32,000 bases of DNA from Geotalea daltonii FRC-32 (GTDB lineage: Bacteria > Desulfobacterota > Desulfuromonadia > Geobacterales > Geobacteraceae), in assembly GCF_000022265.1 (NCBI RefSeq), contig NC_011979.1, positions 2,670,001 to 2,702,000 of the forward strand, read 5' to 3'. The position numbers and the translations under genes were made by a program. This document shows positions 5,935 through 27,932 of the stretch, piece by piece (the first letter of the stretch is position 1; every line of letters begins with the position of its first letter). Below the pieces are notes generated by a model. The model was not told the origin of the DNA. It was given only the letters and a program-made list of their open reading frames with translations, and did not search any database.

Positions 5935-7644
5935 CTAATGGTATTTTGTTGAGGAAAGAAGCTGTTTGAACACTGTCGGAAGCTGATCCACATCGTTGAC
6001 GAACTGGATCATCTCACCATGTTCTTCTGCCAGGGCGGTTTTGTTCATGGGGTCGCATTCGAGGCCAATGGTCAGCAGGCGTACGTTCCTGGCCTTGCAG
6101 TAGCGGATTGCGTCGGACACCCCGCAGCCCCAATTTGCGGCGCCATCGGTCAGATGAATGATGAAGGGCTTGCGGCTGCTTTGCTTGAGATTCAGAGCTG
6201 TGGCTATTATTGCTTCACCCGATGCGGTTCTTCCGTGGGGCATCACCGAATAGAACTGCCCGTTCTTGTAGATCTCGGTGATGCGGCAGGTATCGTTTCT
6301 TTCGTTGTAGGCGAATATTCTGGCGTTACGGTTGTAGGCATGGAGGGCCATAAAAAGCGTCTGGTAAATGACCTCAGTTTTTGTCCATTTGTTGGGTTCG
6401 GCCATGGAACCGGTGCAGTCCACCAGGAGAACGATGTCGTTATGCAGCTGGTAATTGGTCTTCTTGAAGTTGAATATGGCTCCGGATGTGGGCGCCCTGT
6501 ATAAGCGGGTACGATCGATCTTGCCTGAGGGAAGGCCTCTGTTGTAGGCGATGTTTCTCTGAGCAACCAGCTGGAGAACCGTTTTCAGCTTGTAAAAGAG
6601 GGCATTGTCGATGTTTTTGTTTGCCGGCATGACGATATCGTTCCCCTCCACACGAACCACGTCGCCGAAATTAGCCACGACCGATTTCACCTGTTCCGTA
6701 AAGTCCACATGCTTTCTTTCCAGCTTGCTTTCGATCTCTTCCGCATAGCTGAGCAGCGTTGCCTTGACTCCGTCTTTCTCCTCATCCTCTTTTTCCATAT
6801 CTTCATTGAAATCGGCCGAGAGCAGAAAGGGATCTTTCCGGTCGGTGGGCCAGAATTTGATCATCTCCAGCAATTGGTTGAAAATGGAGGCATAGAGATT
6901 CAAACGGTACTCGCAGCGTTCCGTCACGCTGGGAAGTGCGGGGCAGGTGGTCATCAGCTCCTCGACGATGCCGTTGAGGAGCTCCATGGGCTTTGCATAG
7001 AATTGACCGGCGGTGGTTTTGCCCACCATCCCCACTACCGAGCGGTCTTCGTATGGATGCCTGAATGCTTCCCCTGGAGCGGTGGCTACTCTCCACCATA
7101 TGTGCAGCAGTTCGGTGAAGGAGGGGGGATTGATGAAATGCCTGGCCGCCTTCGCGGTCTCCCATTCACGGGCCTTTTGCGTGTAGAGGCCGAATACATT
7201 CCTGTTGGCTATGAGATCCGCGTATACCTTCTCGGCGATTTGCAGGAAATGGGCGAACTTGTAGGCATAAATGGGGGCGAGGACGAATTTTGAGTTGGCC
7301 AGCTTATGCACATGGTCAGTCCATTCCCTCTTGAGGAAGGCTCCCCTGACGGCAAGCCCGATGGCAACGTCGGCCTGCGTGGCGGGGATCGGATAGCGCC
7401 CCATTATCGGCGACGGATCCAGCGCAATACTGTCGGTCTGACCGGCCATCCCTTCCCAGACGACGGTGCCGATGTTTCTGCCGATCATCACGACCATTTT
7501 TCTGATGCCACGCAGAAGTTTTGCCAGCTCAACGATCTCAACCGGCGATTTATCTCTGCGCCAGTATTCGGAATGACCCGCCTCCGCGGCAATCATGAAG
7601 CGCGACCGGGCCTTGTTTTCTCCGTGGGCAGGTTCCGGGATCAT
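5935..7644 (-). CDS. bssF: BssF-like protein with a C-terminal von Willebrand factor A (VWA) domain
   Basis: Positioned directly after bssE (stop TGA 7647-7649). ATG 7644 sits 5 nt after GAGAGG; an alternative GTG at 7650 overlaps the stop. C-terminal VLLVDCTGSM...GRTASGEA...HLTDGAAN resembles a MIDAS-type VWA fold. Confidence 0.7.
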   Translation of the reverse strand: MIPEPAHGENKARSRFMIAAEAGHSEYWRRDKSPVEIVELAKLLRGIRKMVVMIGRNIGTVVWEGMAGQTDSIALDPSPIMGRYPIPATQADVAIGLAVRGAFLKREWTDHVHKLANSKFVLAPIYAYKFAHFLQIAEKVYADLIANRNVFGLYTQKAREWETAKAARHFINPPSFTELLHIWWRVATAPGEAFRHPYEDRSVVGMVGKTTAGQFYAKPMELLNGIVEELMTTCPALPSVTERCEYRLNLYASIFNQLLEMIKFWPTDRKDPFLLSADFNEDMEKEDEEKDGVKATLLSYAEEIESKLERKHVDFTEQVKSVVANFGDVVRVEGNDIVMPANKNIDNALFYKLKTVLQLVAQRNIAYNRGLPSGKIDRTRLYRAPTSGAIFNFKKTNYQLHNDIVLLVDCTGSMAEPNKWTKTEVIYQTLFMALHAYNRNARIFAYNERNDTCRITEIYKNGQFYSVMPHGRTASGEAIIATALNLKQSSRKPFIIHLTDGAANWGCGVSDAIRYCKARNVRLLTIGLECDPMNKTALAEEHGEMIQFVNDVDQLPTVFKQLLSSTKYH

Positions 7645-7646
7645 GA

Positions 7647-8525
7647 TCACCTCTCTTTGTTTCGCTGCCAGCTGTGATCGAAGAGGATATATTCGTTACT
7701 GACCGTCTCGGTATGGCCCCTTCTCACGTGCAGACCGATCAGGGCCGACTCCAGGGCTTCCTGGCTCGTCTGTAGACTAACCGCCAAGGCCTGCCTGAAG
7801 CTTGCCCCCACAGCCATCATATCGCCGATCATCAGGGCCGTTCTTGTGGATACATCGACCCTCATCTCCGGGTTTCCCCGCATGAAATTGAGGGCGGCCA
7901 TGATGTCGTCGGCCTGGGGGGCGGTAATGCCGGTTTTCTTGATCAACACCTCTTTTTCCACCTCGTTGGGGAGATAATCCATGAGCAGAAAGTAGAATCG
8001 GTCCCGAAGTGCGGCATCCAGGAGCTCGGTGCCGACGAAGTCTTCACCCTCGTTGAGAGTGGCAAAGAAGACCACCCCGTCTGCCACTTTCAGATGCCCC
8101 AACTCTTCCAACCAGACATCGCGGCTGTCAGAGAGGAGAGAAAAGAGCATGTTGAGTGCCTTGGGATGCTCCGGCCTGTTGATCTCCTCCAGGTGAATGA
8201 CGCTGTTGGGGGTCTGGATCGCTTCGGGGAAGAGAAACTGCTTGTACTTGGTTTCTCCTGCCTCCAGGGCGTACTCGCCGAACAACTGGCTCGGCTCCGA
8301 AAGGATGCCGACCTGGAATGTGGACAGGGGCCGTTGGTAGATGGCGGCATATTGCCGGACCAGGGATGACTTCCCGCATCCTTGCCGTCCTGAAATGAGG
8401 ACGTTGACCGGTTTTTTCCGGGAGAGGAGGTGAATCTTCTCGAAGATGTCGGCCAGATCCCTGCTCACGTAAAAATAGGGATCAAGCTGGGGCACCGATA
8501 GGTTTTCGTGTTTGCTGGCTGACAT
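7647..8525 (-). CDS. bssE: MoxR/NorQ/CbbQ-class AAA+ ATPase (putative BSS chaperone)
   Basis: Walker A SGRQGCGKSS. MoxR-type Walker B region VIHLEEINRP. Located downstream of bssB as in described bss operons. Confidence 0.8.
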   Translation of the reverse strand: MSASKHENLSVPQLDPYFYVSRDLADIFEKIHLLSRKKPVNVLISGRQGCGKSSLVRQYAAIYQRPLSTFQVGILSEPSQLFGEYALEAGETKYKQFLFPEAIQTPNSVIHLEEINRPEHPKALNMLFSLLSDSRDVWLEELGHLKVADGVVFFATLNEGEDFVGTELLDAALRDRFYFLLMDYLPNEVEKEVLIKKTGITAPQADDIMAALNFMRGNPEMRVDVSTRTALMIGDMMAVGASFRQALAVSLQTSQEALESALIGLHVRRGHTETVSNEYILFDHSWQRNKER

Positions 8526-8940: not shown

Positions 8941-11529
8941 TTACAGCGGTGCGTTGATGTACTCGTAGTCATCGGCCCCGAAGTGCTGCTCGTTGCGGGC
9001 AATAATGGTGTTCTGTCCGTAGGTCGGGACATCCACGAAACGGGCACTGAAGCCGGAAACCCTGACGATAAGATCCTGATGCTTTTCCGGTTCTTTCTGG
9101 GCGGCTTTGAGTTCAGCGGTACTCACGCAGTTGAACTGCACGTGGGCAATGTTGAGTGACTCCCAGGTGTCCATGTACGACTTCCAGATATCGAAGCCAT
9201 GGATGCTGCGCATCATCGGCACGTTGAGCCGCTGATTGAGCAAGTTGGTCTTCTGGTTCTTCTGTACCTTGGAAACCGACTTGAGCACCGCCGTTGGCCC
9301 CTTTTTGTCCGTGCCGAAGTAGGGTGAGATGCCGCCGTCATCGGCTGCGTCACCGCCAAAGCGGCCGTCCGGGGTGGGGCCGGTGCGGGAGCCGACCTCC
9401 ATGTAGAGGCCGACAGCCTGGCCGACCGGCAGCACAGGACCTCCGGAAAAATTGGTCACTTTGGCCAATTCACCTCCGAGGATTTCCTCGTAGAACTTGC
9501 TGATGATACCGTCAGCGTAGGGGTCGTCGTTTCCCCACTTGGGCGCATTGAGGAAATCCTGGCGCATGGCTTCGTGGCCTTCCCAGTTGGCTTGGAGAGC
9601 GTCGAGGAGCTGCTTCATGGTGTACTTCTTCTCGTCGTAGATCAGCTTCTTGATGGCGACCAGGGAGTTGGCGGCAACGACGGTGGTGATCGGGTTGTGC
9701 CAACCGTTGGGCTGTTCGGAGAGCTCCACCGAGTCAATGCCGAGCTCCATGCAGCCGTCGTCGATGCTGGAAACAAAAGGCATCTGCATTACCTGGCACT
9801 CGAAATGCCGCATGACATCCTTGGCCCGGATGACCAGGCTGGTGACGTAGGCATACTGCTTGCGGAAAGCTTCCAAGAGGTCGTCAAAAGTCTTGAATCC
9901 CGTCGCCTCGCCAGTCTTGGGACCGAGCTGCATGCCGGAATAGGACCAGTCGTAGCCGTTGTTGAGGGCAATTTCCAGGAGTTTTGCCGGGAAAATCGCG
10001 CCGCCCCCTTCTGATCGGGTCTTCTGAGTTTTCCTCCTGCCGCAGACACCGGGCGACATACAGAGGACATTGGCCCATCGATGGGCCTCGTCGTCGGTGA
10101 CCCCGTTTTCATTCAGGCTAAACTGGCTGTAGAACTTCATCTGTTCGACGCCAATCCTGTTGTGCATGATGGAGGGATAGCCCAGGCCGTCCCTGACGCA
10201 CTCGAACACGAGCCGCTTCGTCTTGACCCGGCCAACCGGATCCCATCTGAAGACGATGGAGGGTTCGGTGGTGCGGATGTTGCGCGCCCCTTCCAGGATG
10301 GCATCGGTCATGTCGCTGCAGGCGTCTACAAAGCCTGGCTTGGTACCCCCCACCGTCAGGATGAACAGGTCATTGGAACCGGGGAATATTTCCCGATAGG
10401 CGCGGGATTTGCCGGCGCCGTGCTCGGAGATCTTCAGGCGCTCGCACTCCACCAGTTCCACCACATCCTTGTGGGTCATGGGCTGGAAGCTCCTGTCCTT
10501 GACGCTGATGTTATAGTACGGCTCCAGCAGTTCATCCTCCTTCTGGGCAAAGCCGCTGGCGTAGCGGTCAAGGGCATGGCAGATGAGGAAGACAAACCAT
10601 TTGGACTGGAAGGCGTCCCTGAGTCCTTTGCACGGTTCGGCGGGGACCCGGTGGCAAATCTCCGAGATCTCCAACAGCTCTTCCTTGCGGGCGGAATTGG
10701 TCTCGAAATTTTCCGCGACGATCTTGGCCAGCCTGGCGTGACGGCGGGCCCAGTTGATGACCGCCTCGTCGGCAATGATCATTGCCTTCCAGAGATCGAT
10801 CTTGGGGATCCAGGAGAGCTGCTTGGTGGCGTCCCAGGGGGTTTTTTCCATCTCGGCCTGGGCATTGGCCAGCTTTTCTTTGGCCAGTTCGATCCGCTTC
10901 AGGAGGCCGTCCTCCAGCACCGTCTCGTAAGGAGGGACAATGCTGTTGTAGCCGGAAGCGAACATGGGGCCTTCCATGGTGCTTACCTGATACATTCTGG
11001 TGAGGTCTGCCTGATCAAAATAGGGCTCGCACTTGGCCTGAATGCTGAACGGCTTCCAGTAGTTGAGGATCTCCTGGGCTTCATCCTTGGGCTGCGGCGC
11101 GTAGTCGGTCATCAGGTAGTCCTGGACCGCCATGTAGGCGAGCTCGGGATAGAGGGGGAACATCTCCGGATCTTCGGCATGGTAGCCGATGATCAGTTCG
11201 TCGTCCTGGAGCACCAGGGTGCAGTTATTGAGGAGATGGGCGAGTCCGAGGGCACGGCGGATGACTTCCGGCTTGCCGGCGGTTGCCTTGTGCGATTCGG
11301 TGATGAGCCGCATTCTTTCGATACCTGCCCGGACTTCCTTGTCGATGAATTCACCGGCAGAGGCATGCTTCCAGCGGCACCTTGCCTTGAGCCTCCTGGT
11401 CCGTTCGGTGGTCGGCTTGCAGAGGTTTTCGTGCAAAATCTCGTCAGGCACGTTCATTTCTTCCGGGTTTTCCAGCGGAAAATCGATTGTCCTGCCTTTG
11501 TAGTTGATGGACTGGGCTACCATTGCCAT
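8941..11529 (-). CDS. bssA: Benzylsuccinate synthase-type fumarate-adding glycyl radical enzyme, alpha subunit, copy 1 (862 aa)
   Basis: Glycyl radical motif DLIVRVSGFSARFVD (Gly826, codon 9052-9054). Thiyl Cys in VLCMSPGV (Cys490, codon 10060-10062). Fumarate-binding TRSEGGG. BssA-typical C-terminus PTYGQNTIIARNEQ. GGGAGA RBS. Confidence 0.95.
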   Translation of the reverse strand: MAMVAQSINYKGRTIDFPLENPEEMNVPDEILHENLCKPTTERTRRLKARCRWKHASAGEFIDKEVRAGIERMRLITESHKATAGKPEVIRRALGLAHLLNNCTLVLQDDELIIGYHAEDPEMFPLYPELAYMAVQDYLMTDYAPQPKDEAQEILNYWKPFSIQAKCEPYFDQADLTRMYQVSTMEGPMFASGYNSIVPPYETVLEDGLLKRIELAKEKLANAQAEMEKTPWDATKQLSWIPKIDLWKAMIIADEAVINWARRHARLAKIVAENFETNSARKEELLEISEICHRVPAEPCKGLRDAFQSKWFVFLICHALDRYASGFAQKEDELLEPYYNISVKDRSFQPMTHKDVVELVECERLKISEHGAGKSRAYREIFPGSNDLFILTVGGTKPGFVDACSDMTDAILEGARNIRTTEPSIVFRWDPVGRVKTKRLVFECVRDGLGYPSIMHNRIGVEQMKFYSQFSLNENGVTDDEAHRWANVLCMSPGVCGRRKTQKTRSEGGGAIFPAKLLEIALNNGYDWSYSGMQLGPKTGEATGFKTFDDLLEAFRKQYAYVTSLVIRAKDVMRHFECQVMQMPFVSSIDDGCMELGIDSVELSEQPNGWHNPITTVVAANSLVAIKKLIYDEKKYTMKQLLDALQANWEGHEAMRQDFLNAPKWGNDDPYADGIISKFYEEILGGELAKVTNFSGGPVLPVGQAVGLYMEVGSRTGPTPDGRFGGDAADDGGISPYFGTDKKGPTAVLKSVSKVQKNQKTNLLNQRLNVPMMRSIHGFDIWKSYMDTWESLNIAHVQFNCVSTAELKAAQKEPEKHQDLIVRVSGFSARFVDVPTYGQNTIIARNEQHFGADDYEYINAPL

Positions 11530-11822: not shown

Positions 11823-12872
11823 TTATTGCCGGACCGGCACCACCCCCTTTGCCCGTGACGGATGTGGCCGTCGCGGCAGAATACTGCCATCAGCCCTTGA
11901 TGCCTCGTTGCCGACAGCGGTTCCTGTTGGTGATATGGTGCCGACCAAGCCGCCAATGGTAACCTCACGGATGCCTTTTATCCTGAGGGCATCTGCCAGG
12001 GGAAAAAGGTTACGGGCAGCAAGATCCGGGACCCCCAGGTAGTGGTAGCGCCGCCCCAATTGCGCATATTTGCCGGTTGCATAGGAGTGATAGGGAAGCA
12101 GATCCACACCGGTCAGGTAGTCGGCGAATTGTCCCAGGTACTCTGCATACATCTCGAAATCGCCGGCGGTGTCGTTGATGCCCGGAATAATCGGCAGATG
12201 GATGCGTGTCGCAGCTCCGGCCTTTATTAGCCGTTCGAGATTTGCCAGGATTTTGTGAAGGGAGCCGCCGATTACCTGCTCGTATTTTTCTGGCTCCAGC
12301 GATTTGATATCGACAATGAACAGGTCGACAAATTCCAACAGCGGGACGATATTTTCCCACTCTGCAAAGAGGCAGGTCTCCACTGCCACGTGGACATCCT
12401 CCCGGACCTTGAGAATACGAGTCAGTTCGCGGGTAAATGCCGGGTACATGAGAGGTTCTCCGCCACTGATCGTGACTCCGCCTCCGCTGTTGTTGTAAAA
12501 AATACGGTCCGATACCGCTTCTTCTACAATGGCGTTCATATCCAGAGGCTTGCCCACCGTTTCACGTGCACCGAACCGGCAGGCAGATACACATCCCAGG
12601 CACGACGTGCAGCGGCTTCTATCGACAATTTCCTCGACACCCTTTTGCGGCACGAAGGATGTGCATACGCCGGATGGGCAACTGCCGACGCACTGCCCGC
12701 ATCCCTTGCATTTGTTTGCGTGAAAATAGAATTCGGGTTTTAAGCTGATGTTTTCCGGATTGTGACACCAGGGGCACTGGAGAGGACACCCCTTGACGAA
12801 GATGGTGGTTCTTATACCAGGGCCGTCCTGCAGACAGAACCTCTGGATTTCAGTGATAAGTGGAGTGAGCAT
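11823..12872 (-). CDS. bssD: Glycyl radical enzyme activating enzyme (radical SAM), copy 1
   Basis: ATG 12872 (MLTPLITEIQRF...) follows AAGGAGG. Radical-SAM CPLQCPWC, plus two ferredoxin-like clusters CKGCGQCVGSCP and CTSCLGCVSACR. The track ORF (to 13115) adds 81 AT-rich codons that run through the promoter. Confidence 0.9.
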   Translation of the reverse strand: MLTPLITEIQRFCLQDGPGIRTTIFVKGCPLQCPWCHNPENISLKPEFYFHANKCKGCGQCVGSCPSGVCTSFVPQKGVEEIVDRSRCTSCLGCVSACRFGARETVGKPLDMNAIVEEAVSDRIFYNNSGGGVTISGGEPLMYPAFTRELTRILKVREDVHVAVETCLFAEWENIVPLLEFVDLFIVDIKSLEPEKYEQVIGGSLHKILANLERLIKAGAATRIHLPIIPGINDTAGDFEMYAEYLGQFADYLTGVDLLPYHSYATGKYAQLGRRYHYLGVPDLAARNLFPLADALRIKGIREVTIGGLVGTISPTGTAVGNEASRADGSILPRRPHPSRAKGVVPVRQ

Positions 12873-12916
12873 TGGGCACCTCCTTGGCGGCAGATTGCTT
12901 TCATAAGGATATTGAT

Positions 12917-12932
12917 AGCAGGAGCCATGCCA
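12917..12932 (-). promoter_or_regulatory. Sigma54 (-24/-12) promoter of bss operon 1
   Basis: The minus strand reads TGGCATGGCTCCTGCT, with GG and GC at the consensus spacing of TGGCAC-N5-TTGCW. It lies about 45 nt upstream of the bssD ATG. A divergent sigma54 activator is adjacent, and a near-identical element precedes copy 2. Confidence 0.75.
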
Positions 12933-13282
12933 AAACAATGTTTCATAAATGTTAGTATGGTAGTGGTGTGATAGGTCGCGTATGTAGTCTTGTTGTGGTA
13001 AAGTCTTGTAAATTAAGTATGTTAAGTAAAAAACAACATAGAATAATATTGTTTTGTAATGGTGGTTATTTTGAAGGGTAATGGTGTTCGATGAGGGAAA
13101 TTGATACTCTTTCAACTTTGCTCAATTTCTAAATACCGCCAGACCGGTTCTTCTTTTTCAGAAAATGATAAATTTTTTTTTTACCGGGCGCCTAAACTCG
13201 CATAGGTGAGTAGAAAGGAGGTTCAGGCGGGGGTGAGGCCTTTTCTGTTCTTCTGCTGGGCATCTGCGGTCAGGGTAAAAAT

Positions 13283-13322
13283 TTGCTTTTTTCCCTGAAT
13301 ATGGTTATATAAAACATTGTTC
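13283..13322 (+). promoter_or_regulatory. Candidate sigma70 promoter of regulator 1 (TTGCTT-17-TATATA) overlapped by palindrome AAACATTGTTC
   Basis: -35 at 13283-13288, 17-nt spacer, -10 at 13306-13311. The palindrome at 13312-13322 sits at the predicted start site. The same layout precedes regulator 2. Confidence 0.35.
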
Positions 13323-13353: not shown

Positions 13354-15087
13354 ATGGAGAAAAAAAATAGGAAAGTAAAAGGTTTGCCCACATATGATTC
13401 CGTTAGTAGTAGCATGCGATCACAACTGCGTTTTTCCAGTGAAACTGGTCAGATATGGCTGCACGAACACCGGATGCTGCTGGTACATGCCGATGCCCAT
13501 GCCTTGATGCGCCGCGAGTTGATCGATGCGCTGGGAATGGGGCGTGCACGTGGATTGCTCATGCGCATGGGATATGTGTCGGGGATGAGCGACTTCGAGC
13601 TTACCCGTCTCAACCCCGAAATTACCAGCGACTTGCAATTGTACATGGCAGGACCACTGCTTCACACCCTGGAAGGGATTGTTAAGACCACCATCACCAA
13701 ACTGGAAATAGACCGTAAAACGGGCAAGTTCTATGTTGAGGCGAAATGGGAGAATTCATGGGAGGGGCAGGCTCACCTGCGTCACTATGGTGAGTCGTCC
13801 GAGGGTGTCTGCTGGAACCTGATCGGCTATGCCAGTGGCTATACGTCTGCCTTCATGGGCAAGCCTATTTTATGCAAAGAGATTGCCTGCCATGCAATGG
13901 GCATGAACCATTGTTCTCTCGTTGGTAAACCGGCTGAGGAGTGGGATGATGCAAGTGATTTCGAGCTGCTGACTAATCACGAATCCATCGCCGACCAGCT
14001 CATTGGTCTTCAAAACCAGGTTGTGCAGTTGCGCTCTGCCATGGGTAAGAAAACGAAGCTTCCGTCCGATATTGTCGGCAATTCGCCGGCTTTTCTTACT
14101 GCTTACGAACTGCTTACCCAAGCAGCCGACAGCCAGATCAATGTGCTGCTCCAGGGGGAGACGGGGGTCGGCAAGGAGGTTTTCGCTCGCACGCTGCATG
14201 AGAAGGGGGTCCGTTGCAAGGAGTCGTTCATCGCCATCAATTGCGCCGCCATACCCCATGATCTGGTGGAGTCGGAACTGTTCGGCGTGGAGAAAGGCGC
14301 CTTTACCGGTGCCCTTGCCTCCCGGCCCGGTCGTTTCGAGCGTGCCAATGGCGGCACCTTGTTTCTGGATGAGGTGGGTGACCTGCCCCTTTCGGCCCAG
14401 GCGAAGCTGCTCCGCGTGCTGCAGGAGGGTGAGGTGGAACGCCTGGGAGGCACAGAAACCTACAAGGTCGATGTGCGGCTGGTTGCGGCAACCAACATCG
14501 ACCTGAAACAGCTCGTGGGTAATGGTAAATTTCGTTCCGATTTGTACTACCGGTTGAATGCTCTGCAGATCAACATTCCTCCCCTCAGGGATCGTAAGCT
14601 TGACATTTTGATCCTGGCTAAGAGTTTTCTCAAGAAATTCAGTGATATTAACGGGAAAAAACTGCGCGGTTTCTCCGACAAGGCCAAGCTGGCTTTGCTC
14701 GCCTATCAATGGCCGGGCAATATCAGGGAACTGCAGAACGTTGTGGAGCGAGGAGTTATGCTTGCTCCCAGTGGTAATCATATTGCCATAAATCACATGT
14801 TTCCTTCCTATAACGAGCAGGTAACCGAATTGCGCCTTGATGGCAAAGGGGGGCTGACCGACAGCCAGAGAGAAAGCGGCAAGGATTTCTGCGAGGCGAT
14901 CCTGAGCGGCAAAATCACCCTTGAACAGGCCAATACCCTGTTGGCGGAAGCTGCCGTAGAGAAAGCAAAGGGCAATCTTTCCGCAGCGGCGAGAATGCTC
15001 GGTCTCTCACGTCCCCAGCTTGCCTATCGCCTGGAGCACCAGAGTGAGACCTCGATGAAAGCCGGCAAACAAAGCCGCCCCCTTTGA
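13354..15087 (+). CDS. Sigma54-dependent transcriptional activator, XylR/DmpR type (XylR_N + V4R sensor, AAA+ domain, Fis-type HTH), copy 1
   Basis: Sensor: SQLRFSSETGQIWLHEHRMLLVH...GRARGLLMRMGY and V4R-like GVCWNLIGYASGY...CKEIAC...HCSLVG. AAA+: GETGVGKE, GAFTGA loop, DEVGDL. HTH: AAARMLGLSRPQLAYRL. Divergent from bssD. Confidence 0.85.
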   Translation: MEKKNRKVKGLPTYDSVSSSMRSQLRFSSETGQIWLHEHRMLLVHADAHALMRRELIDALGMGRARGLLMRMGYVSGMSDFELTRLNPEITSDLQLYMAGPLLHTLEGIVKTTITKLEIDRKTGKFYVEAKWENSWEGQAHLRHYGESSEGVCWNLIGYASGYTSAFMGKPILCKEIACHAMGMNHCSLVGKPAEEWDDASDFELLTNHESIADQLIGLQNQVVQLRSAMGKKTKLPSDIVGNSPAFLTAYELLTQAADSQINVLLQGETGVGKEVFARTLHEKGVRCKESFIAINCAAIPHDLVESELFGVEKGAFTGALASRPGRFERANGGTLFLDEVGDLPLSAQAKLLRVLQEGEVERLGGTETYKVDVRLVAATNIDLKQLVGNGKFRSDLYYRLNALQINIPPLRDRKLDILILAKSFLKKFSDINGKKLRGFSDKAKLALLAYQWPGNIRELQNVVERGVMLAPSGNHIAINHMFPSYNEQVTELRLDGKGGLTDSQRESGKDFCEAILSGKITLEQANTLLAEAAVEKAKGNLSAAARMLGLSRPQLAYRLEHQSETSMKAGKQSRPL

Positions 15088-15156: not shown

Positions 15157-17619
15157 CTAACCTGCGGTTTCAATATCTGCTGGAATTCCTTCTTCAACGT
15201 ATTCATCGACGTTTTCATGCATCCCGTTCAGCATGAAGTGCGACAGGGCGGGGATGAGGATGAGGGCGCCGAACATGTTCCAGAGGAACATGAAGGTGAG
15301 GAGGATCCCCATGTCGGCCTGGAACTTGATCGGCGACAGTGACCAGGTGATGACGCCGCCGGCCAGGGTGATCCCGACCAGACCTACGACCTTGCCCGTG
15401 AACTGGACCGCCTTCTGGTACGCCTCGCCGAGCGGCAGCCCCTCCCGCTGGTACTTGAGCTGCATGCTCAGGAGATACAGGGCGTAGTCGATGCCGATGC
15501 CGACCCCAAGCGCGATGACCGGCAGGGTGGCGACCTTGACGCCGATGCCGAGCGCGACCATCAGCGCCTCGCACAGGATAGAGGTGAGGATGAGCGGCAG
15601 GATCGCCACCAGGACGGCACGCCAGCTCCTGAAGGTGATGAAGCAGAGCACGATGACGGCGCCGTAGACGTAAAGCAGCATGGTGCGGTTGGCCGACTTG
15701 ACCACGATGTTGGTGGCGGCCTCGATGCCGGAGCTGCCGGCGGCCAAAAGGAACTGCCGATCCTTGGTGGTGTGTTTTTTGACGAATTCCTCGGCCACGG
15801 TGAGGACCCGGCTCAGGGTCTCGGCCTTATGGTCGGAGAGGTAGGCGATGACCGGGGTGACCGAGATGGTGCTGTTGATCAGGTCCGGATTGTCGAAACA
15901 GGACTGCTGGCCGCTGTAGTTGAGGACCTCCTGGCTGCGGTTCAAGGTGTACCATTTCGGATTGCCGTCATAGGTGCCGGCGGTGATCATCCGGATGGCG
16001 TCGGACATGGTGACGGTGGTCTGGACGCCGGGCACCTGCTGCATGGCCAAGGCGAGGCGGTCGGCCTCGATGAGCGGCTCATATTTGATGGCACCCTCGG
16101 TGGGGGTCTTGAGGATGACGGCGAACTGGTCGCTGGAGAGGGAATAGTTGCTGGTGATGTAGTTGTTGTCCTTGTTGTAGCGTGAATTGGGCCTCAGTTC
16201 CGGCGCGCCTGGATCCAGGTCGCCGATCTTCAGGTTGAGGCTGACGACGAATCCGGCCACGGCCAGGATTGCCGAGACGACCACGGCGCGGGTGGCCCAG
16301 CGGCGTTGGGTGAAGTGGTCCAGAAGGCTCCACAGGGCGCCGACTCCTTTGCCGGTATTTTCTTCGCTCTCCTCCTGGAGGCTTCTGCGGGCAGCCTTGG
16401 GGCTGACTCCGGTGTAGGAGAGGAAGACCGGCAAGAGCAAGAGGTTGGTGATGACCAGGCCGGCCACGCCGATGCTGGCGGTCAGCGCCAGGTCCTTGAT
16501 GACCGGGATGTCGATAAGCATCAGGACGGCAAAGCCGACCGCATCGGCCATGAGGGCGGTTAGGCCTGCCAGGAACAGCCGGCGGAAGGTGTAGCGAGCC
16601 GCCACCAGTTTGTGGGTGCCGCGTCCCACGTCCTGCATGATGCCGTTCATCTTCTGCACCCCGTGGGAGACGCCGATGGCAAAGACCAGGAACGGCACCA
16701 GGATGGAGTAGGGGTCCAGTTCGAAGCCCAGCGTGGCGACGATTCCCAGCTGCCAGATGACTGCCACCACCGAACAGATGATGACCAGCCCCGTGCTCCG
16801 GATGCAGCGGGTGTAGAAGAAGATGACGATGGCTGCGATCAGGGCGGCGATGCCGAAATAGGTCATCACCTGCATCAGGCCGTCGATCAGGTCACCCACC
16901 AGCTTGGCAAAGCCGACGATATGGATCTTGATCTCGCCCTTGCCCATTGCCTCGTACTTCTTCCGGATGTCGTTCTCGATCTGCTTGGAGAAGGCGTTGT
17001 AGTCGAGCCTTTTTCCCGTGCTGGGGTCCTTGTCCAAAAGCGGCACAAAGACCATTGCCGATTTGTAGTTGGTGGCCAGGAGGCTCCCCACGATGCCGGA
17101 ACGGGTGATGTTCTGCTTGAGCTTCGACACCTTCTCTTCCGAGCCGTCGAAGTTGTCCGGCATGACCGGCCCCCCCTGGAATCCCTCCTCGGTGACCTCG
17201 TTCCAACGGACCGCCGGTGTCCAGATAGACTTGACCCAGGCCCGGTCCACCCCGGGGGTGAGCACCAGATCGTCGTTCACCTGCCGTAAAATATCCAGGT
17301 ACTGGGGATCGAAGATGTCCCCCCTGGTGTTCTCCACCACCACCCGGATCGAATTGCCCAGGCCCGGCAGGTCCTGTTTGTTGGCCAGATAGTTCTTGAT
17401 GTAGGGGTGGCTCTGGGGGAGCATCTTCTCGAAGCTCGCGTTGAAGACAATTCTCGTTGTCTGGTAGGCAAGGGCCAGGGTGACAACCACGCAGGCGATC
17501 ATCACCGCCAGCCGGTTGTTGAAGATCAGCCGCTCAAGCATGTTGCCGGATTTCGGGTCGAAATCCTTCAGCTCCTTGACTACCGGCATTTCCTCTGATT
17601 TTTCCATTCCAACTGCCAT
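15157..17619 (-). CDS. RND-superfamily inner-membrane transporter (HAE3/HpnN/MMPL-like, 820 aa)
   Basis: Two blocks of multiple hydrophobic helices are separated by large soluble loops. GGGAGA RBS. It is the terminal gene of the DUF1302/DUF1329/BNR/RND set. Confidence 0.75.
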   Translation of the reverse strand: MAVGMEKSEEMPVVKELKDFDPKSGNMLERLIFNNRLAVMIACVVVTLALAYQTTRIVFNASFEKMLPQSHPYIKNYLANKQDLPGLGNSIRVVVENTRGDIFDPQYLDILRQVNDDLVLTPGVDRAWVKSIWTPAVRWNEVTEEGFQGGPVMPDNFDGSEEKVSKLKQNITRSGIVGSLLATNYKSAMVFVPLLDKDPSTGKRLDYNAFSKQIENDIRKKYEAMGKGEIKIHIVGFAKLVGDLIDGLMQVMTYFGIAALIAAIVIFFYTRCIRSTGLVIICSVVAVIWQLGIVATLGFELDPYSILVPFLVFAIGVSHGVQKMNGIMQDVGRGTHKLVAARYTFRRLFLAGLTALMADAVGFAVLMLIDIPVIKDLALTASIGVAGLVITNLLLLPVFLSYTGVSPKAARRSLQEESEENTGKGVGALWSLLDHFTQRRWATRAVVVSAILAVAGFVVSLNLKIGDLDPGAPELRPNSRYNKDNNYITSNYSLSSDQFAVILKTPTEGAIKYEPLIEADRLALAMQQVPGVQTTVTMSDAIRMITAGTYDGNPKWYTLNRSQEVLNYSGQQSCFDNPDLINSTISVTPVIAYLSDHKAETLSRVLTVAEEFVKKHTTKDRQFLLAAGSSGIEAATNIVVKSANRTMLLYVYGAVIVLCFITFRSWRAVLVAILPLILTSILCEALMVALGIGVKVATLPVIALGVGIGIDYALYLLSMQLKYQREGLPLGEAYQKAVQFTGKVVGLVGITLAGGVITWSLSPIKFQADMGILLTFMFLWNMFGALILIPALSHFMLNGMHENVDEYVEEGIPADIETAG

Positions 17620-17725
17620 GTCAGTTCTCCCTGTTTTAACTGGTTTTTAATTGCAATCTGCATGACGTGAATCGCAGGGGCAACCCCATGTGCCTGCCCA
17701 ACAGGAGCGGCCACACAGGCCGTTA

Positions 17726-18832
17726 CTACCTGATCTCTTGCACCTTCACGCCCCGCTTGCCGACCAGGGCCAGGGTGTTGCCGTCAATGGCGGCCACACC
17801 GGCGGCCGGGGTCGGCCGGTCTATCTTGAGCTGGTTGAAACTGGTGCCGTTATCGGCACTTACCAGCACATGTCCTCCCTGGCTTACCAGGACGATCTTG
17901 CCATCCTCGGTAACGGTGCCGGCCATCAGGCCGACCGGGATGCCGGTTTCAACCTTCTGCCAAGTGGAACCGCCGTCCTTGCTTTTGAAGGCATTGCCGC
18001 GCATGCCGTAGGCGATTACCGCCCCGTGCTTGCCGGTGATGCCGAAAAAGGTGCCGGTATAGGCGGTCTTCAGCGCCGTGAAACGTTTCTTTGCCTGGTC
18101 CAGCTTGAACAAAGTCCCCTGCTCGGAGCTGATGAACAGATCTTTGCCGACAGGGCGGATGGCATAGAGATGAAAGCGCTTCGGGTTGTCGATCCTGTCG
18201 TACCAGGGGGTCCAGCTCTTGCCGCCGTCCACCGTACGGAAGATCAGGTTGAAGGCGCCGACGATGAAGCCGGTGGTGTCGCTCTCGAACCACACGTCCA
18301 GAAACGGCTTGTCAGGCCCTTGATCGACGAATTTCTTTATTTCCGCCATCATTGCCGCGGTCTCCGGCCCGCCCGGCGCGCTTACCGGCGTATTTCCAGG
18401 GGCGTGGCAGGTGCCGCAGCTGTTGGTTCCCATGTAGTGGCCTATCAGGACCTGGGCCGCTGCCCGGCCGTCGAATTGCTTGACCCAGTTGGCCCCGCCG
18501 TCTTCTGAGTGCAGTACCACCCCGTCGTGCCCAACGGCCCATCCCTTCTGTGCCGACGGGAAATGCACCGCCAACAGATCGGAGCTCACTGGGACGCCGG
18601 CCTGGGTCCAGCTCTTCCCCTGGTCGTCGGAGTAGACGATGTGGCCGTGTTGGCCCACCCCCACCACCCGCTTCCCTGCCGTGGCGACGCTGATGAGAAG
18701 GGTCTTGCCCACATGCCGGCTCTTCAGCGCCGGCGTGTCGAGAACATCGTGGAAGGAAGCTGCGGCAAACGTGACGAATGAGAGCATGACCACGGCGGCT
18801 GCCGGCAATATAGTTAGTATTCTCGACTTCAT
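17726..18832 (-). CDS. Secreted BNR/Asp-box repeat beta-propeller protein (Ycf48-like)
   Basis: Signal peptide MKSRILTILPAAAVVMLSFVTFAAA. Repeated SxDxGxxW boxes: SDDQGKSW, SEDGGANW, TVDGGKSW, SKDGGSTW, SADNGTSF. Confidence 0.75.
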   Translation of the reverse strand: MKSRILTILPAAAVVMLSFVTFAAASFHDVLDTPALKSRHVGKTLLISVATAGKRVVGVGQHGHIVYSDDQGKSWTQAGVPVSSDLLAVHFPSAQKGWAVGHDGVVLHSEDGGANWVKQFDGRAAAQVLIGHYMGTNSCGTCHAPGNTPVSAPGGPETAAMMAEIKKFVDQGPDKPFLDVWFESDTTGFIVGAFNLIFRTVDGGKSWTPWYDRIDNPKRFHLYAIRPVGKDLFISSEQGTLFKLDQAKKRFTALKTAYTGTFFGITGKHGAVIAYGMRGNAFKSKDGGSTWQKVETGIPVGLMAGTVTEDGKIVLVSQGGHVLVSADNGTSFNQLKIDRPTPAAGVAAIDGNTLALVGKRGVKVQEIR

Positions 18833-18909
18833 AGTTTCTCCCTTTCAGTGTATCTGCGAAGGCACTCCCGACGCTTCTTTTCATCCAGTCGCCGGGAGTG
18901 CCCTCCAGC

Positions 18910-20265
18910 TTACCTTATGCCTTGGCCTGCCAGTGAATCGGAAGTCCATTCCCTGCGCGGGAAGGCTGTTTTGCCATGGATGATTCCCTGTTTGCCCGTT
19001 ACAGGTAACGCGTTTATGGCATAGGAATCCGTAAGCAGGTCATGGACGAGGAAGCTGTCGCCAAAAGCGCAGGGAGAATCGTAACTGGGGGTTATATAGG
19101 TGAAGCCGACCCGGTAGAGCTGTCCCCTGCCGTCGTACTGATCGGCAGCAGCGGCTCTCCAGCTGTCTTCATCCAGGTAGAATACCCGTTTGCTGTAAAG
19201 GTGGCGTTTCCCCGGTTTCAGGGTCGCCTCCACCACCCAGACACGGTGCAGTTCCCAACGCACCAGATCGGGATTCAGATGTTTCGCTTTCAGGACATCC
19301 TTCTCGTGGTTGGACTGGTACAGCATCTTGTAATCGTTGTACGGAATGTACATTTCTTTCTTGCCCACAAGCTTCCAGTTGTAACGTTCAGGCGAGCCGC
19401 TGAACAGGAAGAGATCGTCCCAGGTGGTTTGCCCGCCATATATGGAGCAGGGGGTGTCGAAGGAGAGGTCCGGTGCCAGTTTCACACGCCGCTGGCCGGG
19501 GAGATACTGCCATCCCTGTCTGGCGTTACGGGCATAATCGAGCGGGTCTATTATCAGGAACGACTCGCCGACTCGGCGACTTGGCCCGACGTAATTCACT
19601 TTGAGGGCGTAGAAGTCTTTGGCGTTGGGAGTTTTGGGATCGTAATAGAAGAACTCCTGCTTCACATTCCCATCGGTCTGCATGGTCGGCCGGCCGCCAG
19701 CGTCCACGGTATAGGAACGGTACCTTTCCTGATATGTCACATCCTCGTAATGGAGGATGTGATTCCATATGGCTTCGATGCCGCTCTTGGGTATGGGGAA
19801 GGGGTAGCCGGCGTGGGCGCCGGTAAAGGCCAGACCATTGTCGGTCAGCTTCGCCGTCAATGCGTGCCTTTTGGTGTTCTCCTGGACATATTTGGGGTGG
19901 GCGGCGGATCGATAGGTCTTGTACACGTCGATACGGAAGCTGGGATACTTCTTCAGCATCGCTTTGGCTCCCTCTGAGAGCTTGTTTGCATACTGGGCCA
20001 TGTTCTTGGCGGTGATGGAGAACAGGGGTTTTTCACCCGCATAGGGGTCGGGCCGCCAACCGTCATTTTTGTAGCCTGCCGGCGACTTGGTGTTGCCGCC
20101 GGTGTACTCCGGGATAGTGCCTTCCTTGTTGCCGGCCTTTTCGGCGCCGATCATTGTCAGGTTCTTGCCGAGCTGTGCGGCCTCCTCCTGGGATACCGCT
20201 GCCAGGGCCACCCCGGAAAAGGTAAGGACCAGCAGGGCTGCAAATGAATATTTTAGTTTCAACAT
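18910..20265 (-). CDS. DUF1329 family periplasmic protein (LolA/LolB-like clan as I recall)
   Basis: Signal peptide MLKLKYSFAALLVLTFSGVALA. Family-typical N-terminus GAEKAGNKEGTIPEYTGG. AAGGAG RBS. It lies 17 nt after the DUF1302 gene. Confidence 0.7.
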   Translation of the reverse strand: MLKLKYSFAALLVLTFSGVALAAVSQEEAAQLGKNLTMIGAEKAGNKEGTIPEYTGGNTKSPAGYKNDGWRPDPYAGEKPLFSITAKNMAQYANKLSEGAKAMLKKYPSFRIDVYKTYRSAAHPKYVQENTKRHALTAKLTDNGLAFTGAHAGYPFPIPKSGIEAIWNHILHYEDVTYQERYRSYTVDAGGRPTMQTDGNVKQEFFYYDPKTPNAKDFYALKVNYVGPSRRVGESFLIIDPLDYARNARQGWQYLPGQRRVKLAPDLSFDTPCSIYGGQTTWDDLFLFSGSPERYNWKLVGKKEMYIPYNDYKMLYQSNHEKDVLKAKHLNPDLVRWELHRVWVVEATLKPGKRHLYSKRVFYLDEDSWRAAAADQYDGRGQLYRVGFTYITPSYDSPCAFGDSFLVHDLLTDSYAINALPVTGKQGIIHGKTAFPRREWTSDSLAGQGIR

Positions 20266-20282
20266 TTTGTTATCTCCTTTTC

Positions 20283-21974
20283 TTAGAAACTGGTTTTAAA
20301 AGTCAGGGAAAGCAGGTCGCGGTCCTTGAGTACCCCGTAGATGTCACCGGCGCCGTCTCCTGCTACCGAAGCCAACCCGGGGAAGGGGATCTGGCCGTTG
20401 GCGTCGGGATGGAGGGTGCCGAAAAAGCTTGCATAGGTAAGATCGATTTTGTACTTGGCCAGGATGTCGAAGGAGAGACCGACACTGTAACTGCCGCTCT
20501 TTTTGGCGCCGCCGCCGGTGACAGCCGAGTTGCCTGAAATGCCGGTCGCGACGTTGATGGGCATGGCAAGGTCGACGCTGGGGAATACCTGTTTCCATTC
20601 CGGCACGAAATTCAGCGTGACAGTGGTATTGTCGCGGGTCGGCTTGTCGAGACCGCCGTATTCGGCGCGTCCGTTATAGAATTCCGGATTCTTGGTGACC
20701 CTGACCATGCGTCCGTAAGTGAATTCCAGGATCGCCGTACCCGTATGGAAAAGCGGCGTCTTGGGGAGGACGCTCAGGAAGTTCAACACGGCGTGCATGG
20801 TGTCTCCCCGTGCGCCCACCGGTGCCAGGGTCGTACTGGCGATGGGCATGTTGTGGCGGTAGGAGACCTCGGACCCTACGCTTATTCCGAAGAATTGCTT
20901 GGCGAAACTCAGGCCGTAGAGGTCGATGTTGGAGCCGTAGGCGAAGTGGTATCGCAGCGGGATCGGTGAGACCCCGTCGTAGTCCCCCACAACCTGGGGC
21001 AGTTTGTCCGAAAATCTGCGGTAGTAAGCCCCGATAGTACCTTTGAGTCCCTCAGGGCTGTAGCGGGCCGCGATTCCCCAGTCCCCCACCTGCCTCGGCT
21101 CACGGGGGCCGCCGTTACGGGGATTGATGAGCGGGTTCATGTTGAGGATGACCGATTCTCCACCCTCCAGAAAGGGGTCGTACATTCCCAGGTAGGTCCC
21201 CGACTCAGGGAACAGGGAGGGCTCCCACTGCAGGTAGTACTGTGCTGCAATGGATAAATCATTGGTTGGCTGCACCTGGACCGAGACCTGGTTGAGGGGC
21301 CGGAAGATCTCTTTCAGTTCCACACCGGGCATGCTGAGCGCCTTGGCCAGATCGATGGGAGATTGGCCGTAGGAAATGCCGTTCATTCCCGCATAGGGGA
21401 AAAAAGCCTCACCCCAATAGATCGTGTGGCGCCCGACCCTGGTGTTGACGGGAACCTCACCCAGGTCTACCTTGGCAAAGGCGAAGGCGTCCAGTAGTTC
21501 GGCATCGAGTCCGTAGCGGTCCCGGGCAAAGGGACTGATACCTAAAGCTTGCCGGTCGTTGACGATGTGGTTTTCGGTCGCTACAGAGTCATTGTCGAAC
21601 CCGCGCCTGTACATGGGGTCATACCAAGCCGCTGCGCTGAGCCGGATCCCGAAGTCATTCTTGTATACCGCATCCGCCTCGGTAAGGAGGTCCAGGCGGC
21701 TGGAGACGATCCCCCGGCCGAAATTGCGGTCGCCGTCATCGTTGTTGATGCTGTTGGTGATCGCCGGATTCCGCCCCTTCACCCGTGAAGCCAGGGTGTA
21801 TCTTAAGGTGTTGTCCCAATGGACTACCAGATCCTCGCTTCCGGTGGGAATCTCCAGCGCATCGGCACTGCCGCAGATGCTCGTCACTGCTATCAATGCC
21901 ACTGCCAGGCACTTCTGGCGGCTGATGAACCGCGGCGCAGCTTTATGCTTTAAAGTGTGTATTGCCTTCCCCAT
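20283..21974 (-). CDS. DUF1302 family protein, probable outer-membrane beta-barrel
   Basis: N-terminal signal-like segment. Family-typical WDNTLRYTLASR...NDDGDRNF...SSRLDLLTE. C-terminal ...SLTFKTSF (aromatic terminus). AGGAGG RBS. Confidence 0.7.
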   Translation of the reverse strand: MGKAIHTLKHKAAPRFISRQKCLAVALIAVTSICGSADALEIPTGSEDLVVHWDNTLRYTLASRVKGRNPAITNSINNDDGDRNFGRGIVSSRLDLLTEADAVYKNDFGIRLSAAAWYDPMYRRGFDNDSVATENHIVNDRQALGISPFARDRYGLDAELLDAFAFAKVDLGEVPVNTRVGRHTIYWGEAFFPYAGMNGISYGQSPIDLAKALSMPGVELKEIFRPLNQVSVQVQPTNDLSIAAQYYLQWEPSLFPESGTYLGMYDPFLEGGESVILNMNPLINPRNGGPREPRQVGDWGIAARYSPEGLKGTIGAYYRRFSDKLPQVVGDYDGVSPIPLRYHFAYGSNIDLYGLSFAKQFFGISVGSEVSYRHNMPIASTTLAPVGARGDTMHAVLNFLSVLPKTPLFHTGTAILEFTYGRMVRVTKNPEFYNGRAEYGGLDKPTRDNTTVTLNFVPEWKQVFPSVDLAMPINVATGISGNSAVTGGGAKKSGSYSVGLSFDILAKYKIDLTYASFFGTLHPDANGQIPFPGLASVAGDGAGDIYGVLKDRDLLSLTFKTSF

Positions 21975-22032
21975 CTACTCCTCCTATTTGATGTACTGCC
22001 CAGTGATGCCCCCGATTGCGGCGACTCCGCAA

Positions 22033-23094
22033 TCAAGCAAGGAAATGCATCTGGGACATGCATCTGTCCATGTGCTGCAGGATGTCCCGGCAAGCTTCCC
22101 CGTAGAGATCCCTTGCCGAACTGCCGTTGGAGCGCAGTGCCTGTGCAATGGCCTTCCCGCACCGGTAGCCGCTATCCATCGCAGCACTGATCCCTTCGCA
22201 GTTAAGGTAGATGAAACCGGCCGCTTCTCCGGTGACGAGCACCTTTTCCTGACCCAGGAAGATCGGCAGCAGTTCACAGGTGCATCCCTCGTCCCGCCAA
22301 TGTTCGCCGAAGCTGACGCCAAACCGGCCTGACAGCAACTCTTTGAACTTTTCCATGGATTGGCGAAGGTTGCGTCCGTCCATTCCCCCCACATGCATGA
22401 CCAGGTACTCGTCCTTCTGATGTACGCAGAGAATGTAATCTCCGATTTCCTGTCTCAGAAATACGGTCCATCCGTTTGGCTTCAACGAGCCCAGTGACTT
22501 TACCTTGTAATAACTCTGATAGGATGCGAGCTTGTGCCGCTGGGCGTACTCCGGATTCTGTGCGTGCAGCAAACGCCTCACGGTGGAATCGTTGCCGTCC
22601 GCACCCACGAAATATTCGCACTTGAAGACGGCAGATTCGTTTGTCCGCGACATATGGACATGAACGTCGACTGTGCTGCCACCGGCGTCGAAGGCCTTCA
22701 CTTTTGCACCGTCGCGGTACTCGGCCCCCGATTGGTCCAGCAGCCACTTGTCGAACTTGTCTCGCCAGATATTGTGATAGGTGCGAGAGAACTTCCTGCC
22801 GTCTTTGTCGATTTCCCAGGTGTACGGGATATAACCCTGCTCATCATCCCATTCGCGGATGTCGTCCGCTTCCACGAATTTATTGCCGCAATACACCTCG
22901 GCCGGGACGTGGGTCCCGAAATAGGCTCTGATCAGTTCCTGTGTCTGTCCGAACAACACTCCCGAACAGGTTTTGTGTCGGGGAAGAATTTCCTTTTCCA
23001 GGACCAGGACACTGAAACCTTCATCCTTGAGCGCCTTTGCACAGGTGGAGCCTGCCGGCCCGGAGCCGGCTATCACCACGTCGTACTGTTGCAT
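22033..23094 (-). CDS. FAD-dependent oxidoreductase, geranylgeranyl-reductase/FixC-like family
   Basis: YDVVIAGSGPAGSTCAKALKDEGFSVLVLEK (GxGxxG...E), FVGADGNDSTVRR (GADG motif), VLVTGEAAGFI...EGISAAMDSG (GDAAG-like). AGGAGG RBS directly after a hairpin. Confidence 0.7.
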   Translation of the reverse strand: MQQYDVVIAGSGPAGSTCAKALKDEGFSVLVLEKEILPRHKTCSGVLFGQTQELIRAYFGTHVPAEVYCGNKFVEADDIREWDDEQGYIPYTWEIDKDGRKFSRTYHNIWRDKFDKWLLDQSGAEYRDGAKVKAFDAGGSTVDVHVHMSRTNESAVFKCEYFVGADGNDSTVRRLLHAQNPEYAQRHKLASYQSYYKVKSLGSLKPNGWTVFLRQEIGDYILCVHQKDEYLVMHVGGMDGRNLRQSMEKFKELLSGRFGVSFGEHWRDEGCTCELLPIFLGQEKVLVTGEAAGFIYLNCEGISAAMDSGYRCGKAIAQALRSNGSSARDLYGEACRDILQHMDRCMSQMHFLA

Positions 23095-23170: not shown

Positions 23171-23398
23171 TCACACATGCTCCCTGAAACTGAGCTTTCC
23201 TTCTTCGTGTTTGGCGCAGGTCATGGTGTTCACGTCGGTTACCCACCGTTTCCAAACGCCCCCCATCTTGTTTCTGTTGACCGTGCATTGCCCCCGCAGC
23301 GGATTGGTGGGGTCTGCAATCTGCCATTTACAGCTTTGGCAAGGTTTTTTCGTGCCGGCCTCTTGGTGCATCATGTACTCGTCGACAGTTGTGCTCAC
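23171..23398 (-). CDS. bssB: Benzylsuccinate synthase beta subunit, copy 2
   Basis: KKPCQSCKWQIADPTNPLRGQCTVNRNKMGGVWKRWVTDVNTMTCAKHEEGKLSFREHV. I prefer GTG 23398, 5 nt after AGGAGG. The track's TTG at 23422 has no RBS. Confidence 0.85.
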   Translation of the reverse strand: MSTTVDEYMMHQEAGTKKPCQSCKWQIADPTNPLRGQCTVNRNKMGGVWKRWVTDVNTMTCAKHEEGKLSFREHV

Positions 23399-23432
23399 TA
23401 TTGCCTCCTGTGGTCCTGCCAAAGACCATTTG

Positions 23433-26021: not shown

Positions 26022-26044
26022 GAATGACCTCCTCTTTGGGCATC

Positions 26045-26218: not shown

Positions 26219-26275
26219 TTGGAATCTCCTTTATTTGCATATTGAAATTCTGCGGAATATGTAGATGCATACTCT

Positions 26276-27316: not shown

Positions 27317-27370
27317 GGGGCCTCCTTTAGTGCAAGAACGGGTCTGAACGACTGCATCTGATGGACTATT

Positions 27371-27886: not shown

Positions 27887-27932
27887 CAATATTGTCAGGA
27901 TGTTTGCGAGGTAACTCTCGAGAAAGGGTAGT

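Follow-up and report, generated by a model that had tools for sequence, protein, structure and literature searches.

The 32,000-nucleotide stretch of the Geotalea daltonii FRC-32 genome analysed here (the window; contig NC_011979.1, positions 2,670,001–2,702,000) contains two benzylsuccinate-synthase-like clusters, hbs (cluster 1) and bss (cluster 2), each with a regulator gene that is divergent from its own operon, hereafter denoted R1 (beside hbs) and R2 (beside bss). Within the AAA+ domains of these two regulators lies an internal block of near-identical sequence, which we interpret as the product of ectopic gene conversion between old paralogues in nested events, with R2 the probable donor in the most recent of them (overall probability of this reading about 0.8). 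The preliminary description of the window had proposed a recent, non-reciprocal exchange; a non-reciprocal patch in old paralogues whose sensor domains remain distinct is supported by synonymous divergence, permutations and segment trees, but a single event is not, as at least two nested tracts are present.

Comparison of R1 and R2 over the 240 nt from 14215 and 28791, respectively, reveals one mismatch, as had been counted by hand; it is a synonymous AAT/AAC difference at 14349/28925. The wider blocks beginning at 14170 and 28746, which were said to differ at scattered sites, do so at 25 of 601 positions, with a constant offset of 14576. The divergence reported for the surrounding sequence is equally reproducible. 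The sensor halves are 69% identical at the nucleotide and 68% at the amino acid level, with synonymous differences per synonymous site (pS; Nei–Gojobori method, NG86) of 0.69–1.27, i.e. saturated. The hbsA and bssA genes, used here as a baseline for the age of the two paralogous clusters, are 70.3% identical over their first 100 codons (300 nt; the earlier estimate was about 70%) and 74.6% identical overall, with pS about 0.70 throughout. Diverged sequence flanks the block on both sides, and the remainder of the clusters is 69–78% identical. A search for other conversion tracts across both duplicated clusters found none, the longest exact shared repeat outside the block being 29 nt and hbsA/bssA pS lying at 0.43–0.91 in all windows. 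The lowest of these values comes from one 60-codon window (codons ~601–660; ~9550–9730 and ~24040–24220, minus strand; 0.60–0.91 elsewhere), and the longest exact hbsA/bssA match (26 nt; 9746/24238) lies just outside it, at about codons 587–595; the low value probably reflects constraint or noise.

A codon-wise Nei–Gojobori sliding-window scan of R1 against R2, of the kind that the preliminary description had proposed, shows that synonymous divergence (dS) is not uniform along the genes. It is saturated over codons 1–210 and about 1.0–1.1 over codons 211–270, then 0–0.16 over codons 271–360, 0.10–0.38 over codons 361–480, and 0.65–1.5 over codons 481–570. The 240-nt tract has a dS of 0.016, compared with at least 1.2 in the 5′ linker and sensor and 0.16–1.0 in the 3′ flank; for the linker the value is about 1.2 and for the C-terminal helix–turn–helix (HTH) part about 1.0. 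When only codons for the same degenerate amino acid in both R1 and R2 are considered, synonymous codons are identical in 60 of 147 cases in the sensor versus 174 of 187 in 14170–14770 (Fisher p = 2.6e-26), the latter comprising 91/94 in 14170–14454 and 83/93 in 14455–14770. Uninterrupted runs of identical synonymous codons reach 50, whereas none of 100,000 permutations exceeds 36 (p < 1e-5), and a two-breakpoint maximum chi-squared (max-chi2) analysis places the best segment at 14170–14748. The pattern of the block is far beyond chance.

A genome scan combined with protein look-ups led to the corresponding syntenic region in G. toluenoxydans, the sister species, ~90% identical in nucleotides, from which both regulators (R1tol and R2tol; those of G. 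daltonii are R1dal and R2dal) were taken in two independent assemblies; these carry identical regulator substitutions and differ only in 2-nt indels. In the older draft, JCM 15764 (L008/L081), the same 'GG' is missing from both regulators (window-equivalent 14588–14589) and R2 has a second 2-nt gap, so that both reading frames appear falsely shifted; in the newer assembly (GCA_054653375.1) the regulators are intact, at 579 and 580 amino acids. Further R1-type genes were compared from G. argillaceus, SKS3.bin71 and bin-1737 (bin-1737_A), and R2-type genes from Geotalea sp. SG265, C. bremense and bin-1737 (bin-1737_B). The G. argillaceus cluster is hbs-type, with hbsA of the window 83.7% identical to it. 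Those of SG265 and C. bremense are of the bss type: the alignment of the cluster 2 region from bssB to R2 (23171–29640, including bssA) with the bss cluster of SG265 stands at 81%, and that of its bssB–bssD part (23171–27400) with the C. bremense counterpart at 80%. R1/hbs and R2/bss thus represent two old, separate lineages and not the outcome of a recent duplication.

Neighbour-joining trees with bootstrap were built for each gene segment. In the sensor tree the orthologues pair with full support (R1dal with R1tol, 100%; R2dal with R2tol, 100%). For the core (14170–14454) R1dal groups with R2dal at 94%, rising to 99% for 14215–14454, and the five Geotalea genes fall together with 94–99% bootstrap. 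For the adjoining middle segment (14455–14770) the four G. daltonii and G. toluenoxydans genes are united at 100%, with the orthologue pairs inside (99% and 84%); in the C-terminal tree the orthologue pairs stand at 100% and the four genes are still together at 78%. Bootstraps by segment and identity matrices agree that the paralogues group by genome within the tract and by orthology outside it, and such segment-restricted incongruence is the classical signature of concerted evolution limited to one segment. Control pairs with 91–96% protein identity in the same AAA+ codons have pS of 0.58–0.79, and an R1-type/R2-type pair within one metagenome-assembled genome (MAG; bin-1737) has a pS of 0.58 in the AAA+ core, compared with 0.04 for the G. 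daltonii pair and 0.32 for that of G. toluenoxydans. The low synonymous divergence of the G. daltonii block is beyond what protein or codon constraint imposes.

The bss regulator of SG265 (L003 9998–11758, aligned to window positions 13414–15040) is a mosaic in its own right: up to ~14043 the sensor is of R2 type (88% identity to R2dal), its linker (14044–14178) is R1-like (84% versus 69%; bootstrap 95%), its core belongs to the Geotalea cluster, and its C-terminus resembles that of C. bremense (86%); only one regulator of the R1/R2 kind was found in the SG265 genome. Recombination in this family is evidently recurrent.

The two tracts differ in extent and age. The recent one cannot extend beyond 14211–14454, as sites with the orthologue pattern bound it at 14210 and 14455. 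The residues that it encodes extend from after Walker A to just beyond Walker B and include the GAFTGA motif. The older block corresponds to the AAA+ core: its left edge lies inside the Walker A codons, and it continues through most of the lid domain. In the segment of the recent tract the G. toluenoxydans paralogues are only 220/240 identical, and paralogue dS over 14215–14454 is 0.41 in that species and 0.016 in G. daltonii. Over 14455–14770 paralogue dS is 0.16–0.27 and orthologue dS 0.10–0.12, while other R1-type/R2-type pairs have pS of 0.57–0.79 there. From the dS levels in these two segments it follows that the older tract (~14170–14770) predates the separation of G. daltonii and G. toluenoxydans, and that the recent tract belongs to the G. 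daltonii lineage only, where it arose at a small fraction of the time since that split. There have thus been at least two nested gene-conversion events of different age; comparison with orthologous loci, suggested at the outset as a means of dating a single exchange, dates one before and one after speciation. A point against this scheme is that the right edge of the older tract fades and is not sharp. The dS of the linker and HTH parts (about 1.0–1.8, versus a saturated sensor) hints at a still older exchange.

In the recent tract both G. daltonii copies resemble the R2 orthologues, which makes copy 2 the probable donor and copy 1 the probable recipient. This is the reverse of the direction first suggested ('probably copy 1 into copy 2'). 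The dS of R2dal–R2tol is 0.158, equal to the sensor value of the R2 pair, and that of R1dal–R2tol is 0.178, whereas R1dal–R1tol stands at 0.357, near the paralogue level (R2dal–R1tol, 0.332; R1tol–R2tol, 0.411). Compared with the rest of the gene, the tract has an excess of synonymous differences in the R1 orthologue pair (p = 0.013) but not in the R2 pair (p = 0.48; binomial tests). Quartet-informative sites with SG265 as outgroup divide 5:0:2 in favour of (dal, R2tol) versus (R1tol, SG265), and neighbour-joining bootstrap is 66–75% for (R1dal, R2dal, R2tol) versus 8–14% for a grouping with R1tol.

Copying of R1 into R2 is unlikely on these data. It would be in keeping with the G+C content at third codon positions (GC3) of the G. 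daltonii block (74–77%), which is nearer that of the R1 sensor (59–61%) than that of the R2 sensor (46–47%), and with five sites at which the G. daltonii copies share the state of R1tol and SG265 while R2tol alone deviates. Set against this, R2dal–R2tol divergence in the tract is at the level of R2 orthologues elsewhere and it is the R1 pair that reaches paralogue level; an R1 donor gives a probability of only 0.0013 for nine or fewer R2dal–R2tol differences; no site groups (dal, R1tol) against (R2tol, SG265); and the bootstrap for this arrangement is the low one given above. Transfer from R2 (the bss regulator) into R1 (the hbs regulator) is thus probable, though several observations weigh against it: the polarity rests on ~27 synonymous differences in 240 nt and one sister genome, the branch of R1tol in the core is rather long, and five singleton states of R2tol match distant outgroups, which muddies polarisation. 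Distant outgroups were unreliable for polarising tract sites, third positions being too saturated (75–83% identity). As a source of the extra divergence of R1tol, a patch from a third G. toluenoxydans paralogue (tol_o) was also considered and is unlikely, with pS of 0.73 for R1tol–tol_o versus 0.67 for R2tol–tol_o.

A jump in base composition inside R2 had been taken to indicate direction. The three 60-nt G+C values on which that argument was built are reproduced (41.7%, 68.3% and 56.7%), but the argument is uninformative, as the block GC3 fits neither sensor and the unconverted C-terminal part of R2 is also GC3-rich (69%); composition is for this reason not diagnostic. GC3 of the converted core (14170–14454/28746–29030 and the orthologous segments) is 68–77% in Geotalea genes, higher than in any other segment of these genes (47–69%), and is 54–64% in most non-Geotalea orthologues; these values, from a sample of 95 codons, are compatible with GC-biased conversion.

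Other origins of the near-identity can be weighed against gene conversion. Without any recombination, the AAA+ region could in principle be preserved by strong purifying selection, by biased codon usage, or by some function of the nucleotide sequence itself, such as an embedded RNA or antisense gene; no part of the protein is better conserved than the core (91–98% identity across the closest family members listed, P0002–P0021), which also has a high GC3 and is overlapped by long antisense open reading frames (ORFs; 13870–14796 and 28608–29615, both minus strand). Yet orthologues and paralogues with equal protein conservation have pS of 0.58–0.79 in the same region, and the tree topology shifts between segments; no Rfam family was matched in the window, and the antisense ORF has no match in Pfam. 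The cross-genome synonymous controls effectively refute this explanation. A recent duplication of the regulator followed by sensor replacement, or horizontal transfer of the same foreign AAA+ patch into both copies, is improbable, even in a family that is clearly recombinogenic and includes the SG265 mosaic, with its R2-type sensor, R1-like linker and C. bremense-like C-terminus. The identical block is internal, neighbouring genes are 69–75% identical, and among the sequences compared outside G. daltonii and G. toluenoxydans none is closer than 92% to the tract; moreover, the 3′ halves of R1 and R2 are not recent duplicates, given a dS of ~1.0 in the C-terminal HTH part and ~1.2 in the linker.

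That the identity is an artefact of assembly, through collapse or chimerism of similar paralogues, is more improbable still. The G. daltonii tract is seen in one assembly, which counts against our interpretation, and short-read Logan assemblies of G. toluenoxydans yield short contigs (1455 bp and 2238 bp) at the regulators. Exact-protein look-ups of R1 and R2 gave no further contigs in a collection that masks the source genome, and the one Logan member of the R1 cluster derives from a G. toluenoxydans run. The G. daltonii source, however, is a single contig of 4,304,501 bp; the tract is only 240 nt long, retains one mismatch and has unique sequence on either side; its edges coincide with the orthologue-pattern sites at 14210 and 14455; and the older block is reproduced in both independent G. 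toluenoxydans assemblies.

Gene conversion between R1 and R2 can be outlined as follows. The two genes are old paralogues of two distinct orthologous lineages, one combining the hbs cluster with an R1-type sensor and the other the bss cluster with an R2-type sensor. As the most conserved part of the family, the AAA+ region keeps a nucleotide identity able to seed homologous recombination between the genes, which lie in direct orientation 14.6 kb apart; a RecA-dependent, heteroduplex mechanism is presumed. Resolution without crossover would leave copied patches, i.e. gene conversion, and the bss operon would be lost if the direct repeats crossed over, which may be why no crossover product is seen. 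A first patch of ~600 bp (14170–14770) was copied before G. daltonii and G. toluenoxydans separated, and a second of ~240 bp (14211/14215–14454) probably from R2 into R1 in the G. daltonii lineage, with one synonymous change since. Each conversion raises the identity of R1 and R2, making a further one likelier.

The protein encoded by the recent tract is identical in R1dal, R2dal and R2tol, and R1tol differs by one residue (N/D at 14347). The recent event was therefore almost silent in protein (at most one amino acid), so selection need not be invoked; the conversion has the appearance of a neutral side effect of conserved sequence and not of an adaptation, and such a nearly silent conversion is by itself no sign of selection. 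The earlier gloss of two effector specificities feeding one output mechanism is accordingly not required: the core is 91–98% identical in protein among the closest listed family members, no more than one residue was altered, and the conserved AAA+ core simply supplies a substrate for recombination. It is conceivable, but doubtful, that the AAA+ segment of Geotalea bss/hbs regulators is a recurrent recombination hotspot and common chassis, in which possibly GC-biased conversion keeps the oligomerisation and σ54-contact surfaces interchangeable. Were this so, mixed hexamers and cross-talk in benzene and toluene sensing would be possible, and breakpoints at the sensor/AAA+ junction would allow sensors to be swapped between lineages, the SG265 mosaic being a possible example.

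The features of the locus are collected in Table 1. The window opens inside bbs genes, with BbsB at 46–1113. The bss and hbs operons treated in PMC11497800 (Appl Environ Microbiol 2024) are the same locus; passages of that article place a σ54-dependent Fis-family regulator divergent from both operons in G. daltonii FRC-32, and the σ54 promoters published there match the window exactly.

Table 1. Coordinates of tracts, genes and promoters in the window (position 1 is its first nucleotide)
Feature	Position	Strand	Description or evidence
Recent tract, R1 copy	14215–14454 (maximal 14211–14454)	+	1/240 mismatch, dS 0.016
Recent tract, R2 copy	28791–29030	+	Same evidence as R1 copy
Older homogenised block, R1 copy	14170–14770	+	max-chi2, segment trees, dS
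Older homogenised block, R2 copy	28746–29346	+	Same evidence as R1 copy
R1	13354–15087	+	XylR-type σ54 enhancer-binding protein, 577 amino acids; adjoins hbs (bss-homologue) operon
R2	27933–29675	+	XylR-type σ54 enhancer-binding protein, 580 amino acids; adjoins canonical bss operon
hbsA	8941–11529	-	Glycyl-radical enzyme alpha subunit, cluster 1; PFL-like and Gly_radical domains
bssA	23433–26021	-	Glycyl-radical enzyme alpha subunit, cluster 2; PFL-like and Gly_radical domains
hbs activase ORF	11823–13115	-	Program-listed ORF, cluster 1
bss activase ORF	26276–27388	-	Program-listed ORF, cluster 2
hbs σ54 (-24/-12) promoter	12908–12932	-	Exact match to sequence in passages of PMC11497800
bss σ54 (-24/-12) promoter	27363–27387	-	Exact match to sequence in passages of PMC11497800

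Both activase ORFs, as listed, overrun the published promoters, so the true starts of bssD and hbsD lie further downstream; the activase gene calls in G. toluenoxydans are 349 and 346 amino acids. The two clusters also differ in their accessory genes. AAA_5 and VWA genes (bssE/F-like) are found in the window only downstream of hbs (5935–8525, minus strand), and the bss cluster of G. daltonii is followed instead (15157–23094, minus strand) by genes for a FAD-binding protein, DUF1302 and DUF1329 proteins, a BNR protein and an MMPL transporter; AAA_5/VWA homologues follow a bss-type bssA in SG265 and C. bremense. Accessory genes have been redistributed between hbs and bss clusters.

The hbs and bss intergenic regions are otherwise unalignable but share an identical 24-nt stretch, CATGCCAAAACAATGTTTCATAAA, at 12926–12949 and 27381–27404, in which the σ54 -24 element is directly adjoined by a palindrome, AAACANTGTTT. 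This palindrome is found again at 27876–27886, 47 nt before the start codon of R2, and in imperfect form, AAACATTGTTC, at 13312–13322, 31 nt before that of R1. The same arrangement of promoter and palindrome is present in G. toluenoxydans (L083 9564–9589 and L084 2441–2466) and SG265 (L003 9459–9484). Chance expectation is ~0.015 per window, and the palindrome may be a shared operator.

R1 and R2 share the Pfam architecture XylR_N, V4R, Sigma54_activat, AAA_lid_14 and HTH_8. For R1 and R2, respectively, E-values are 1e-35 and 4e-34 for XylR_N (PF06505) and 4e-12 and 2.5e-10 for V4R (PF02830), and in both proteins Sigma54_activat (PF00158) is matched at ~1e-69 and the C-terminal Fis-type HTH (PF02954) scores above cut-off; the Walker A sequence GETGVGKE and the GAFTGA loop are present in both translations. 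By domain content the two are assigned as XylR/DmpR-type σ54 activators, and the published -24/-12 promoters lie upstream of both divergent operons; control of these promoters by R1 and R2 in response to an aromatic effector is putative. The R1 sensor is nearest by identity to the G. argillaceus and MAG R1-type genes, a grouping without bootstrap support; for the R2 sensor, a cluster with SG265, C. bremense and bin-1737_B has 100% bootstrap, and at the protein level this sensor is 85% identical to G. grbiciae protein P0014. The HTH regions of R1 and R2 are 83% identical over residues 473–562. The near-identity of the ATPase cores and the close similarity of the HTH regions make it worth testing whether the proposed benzene (hbs) and toluene (bss) routes are cross-regulated, although the similarity of core and HTH, read from sequence, is itself no evidence of cross-talk.

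The near-identical block, recombination and paralogues go unmentioned in 12 passages (29 term matches) of PMC11497800, the term 'paralog' having no occurrences, and a literature search on gene conversion between σ54 activators found nothing relevant. The value of the R1/R2 pair lies in a clean, datable case of domain-restricted concerted evolution between regulators of different orthologous lineages. It also serves as a warning that trees and orthology calls made from the AAA+ domain of σ54 activators can mislead, and it shows that the hbs and bss clusters have been co-resident since before G. daltonii and G. toluenoxydans separated.

In their domains R1 and R2 resemble XylR/DmpR activators, having an XylR_N and V4R sensor, an AAA+ σ54-interaction domain with GAFTGA and a Fis-type HTH, and their genes likewise lie divergent beside σ54-dependent catabolic operons; unlike XylR and DmpR, their putative targets are anaerobic glycyl-radical (bss/hbs) operons and not aerobic oxygenase operons. 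As for the exchange itself, ectopic gene conversion between bacterial paralogues is well established for tufA/tufB in Salmonella, for rRNA operons and for the nifH reiterations of Rhizobium, and the R1/R2 case is a new instance of this ordinary process, one that barely changes the proteins. As in those systems, paralogues of one genome share a short internal patch in which synonymous divergence is close to zero; they cluster by genome within this patch and by orthology beyond it, and the tracts measure a few hundred bp. It differs from cases of the tufA/tufB type in that R1 and R2 are strongly diverged elsewhere (sensor ~69% nucleotide identity) and belong to separate orthologous lineages, not to a recent duplication, and in that one domain has been homogenised, by two nested tracts of different age.

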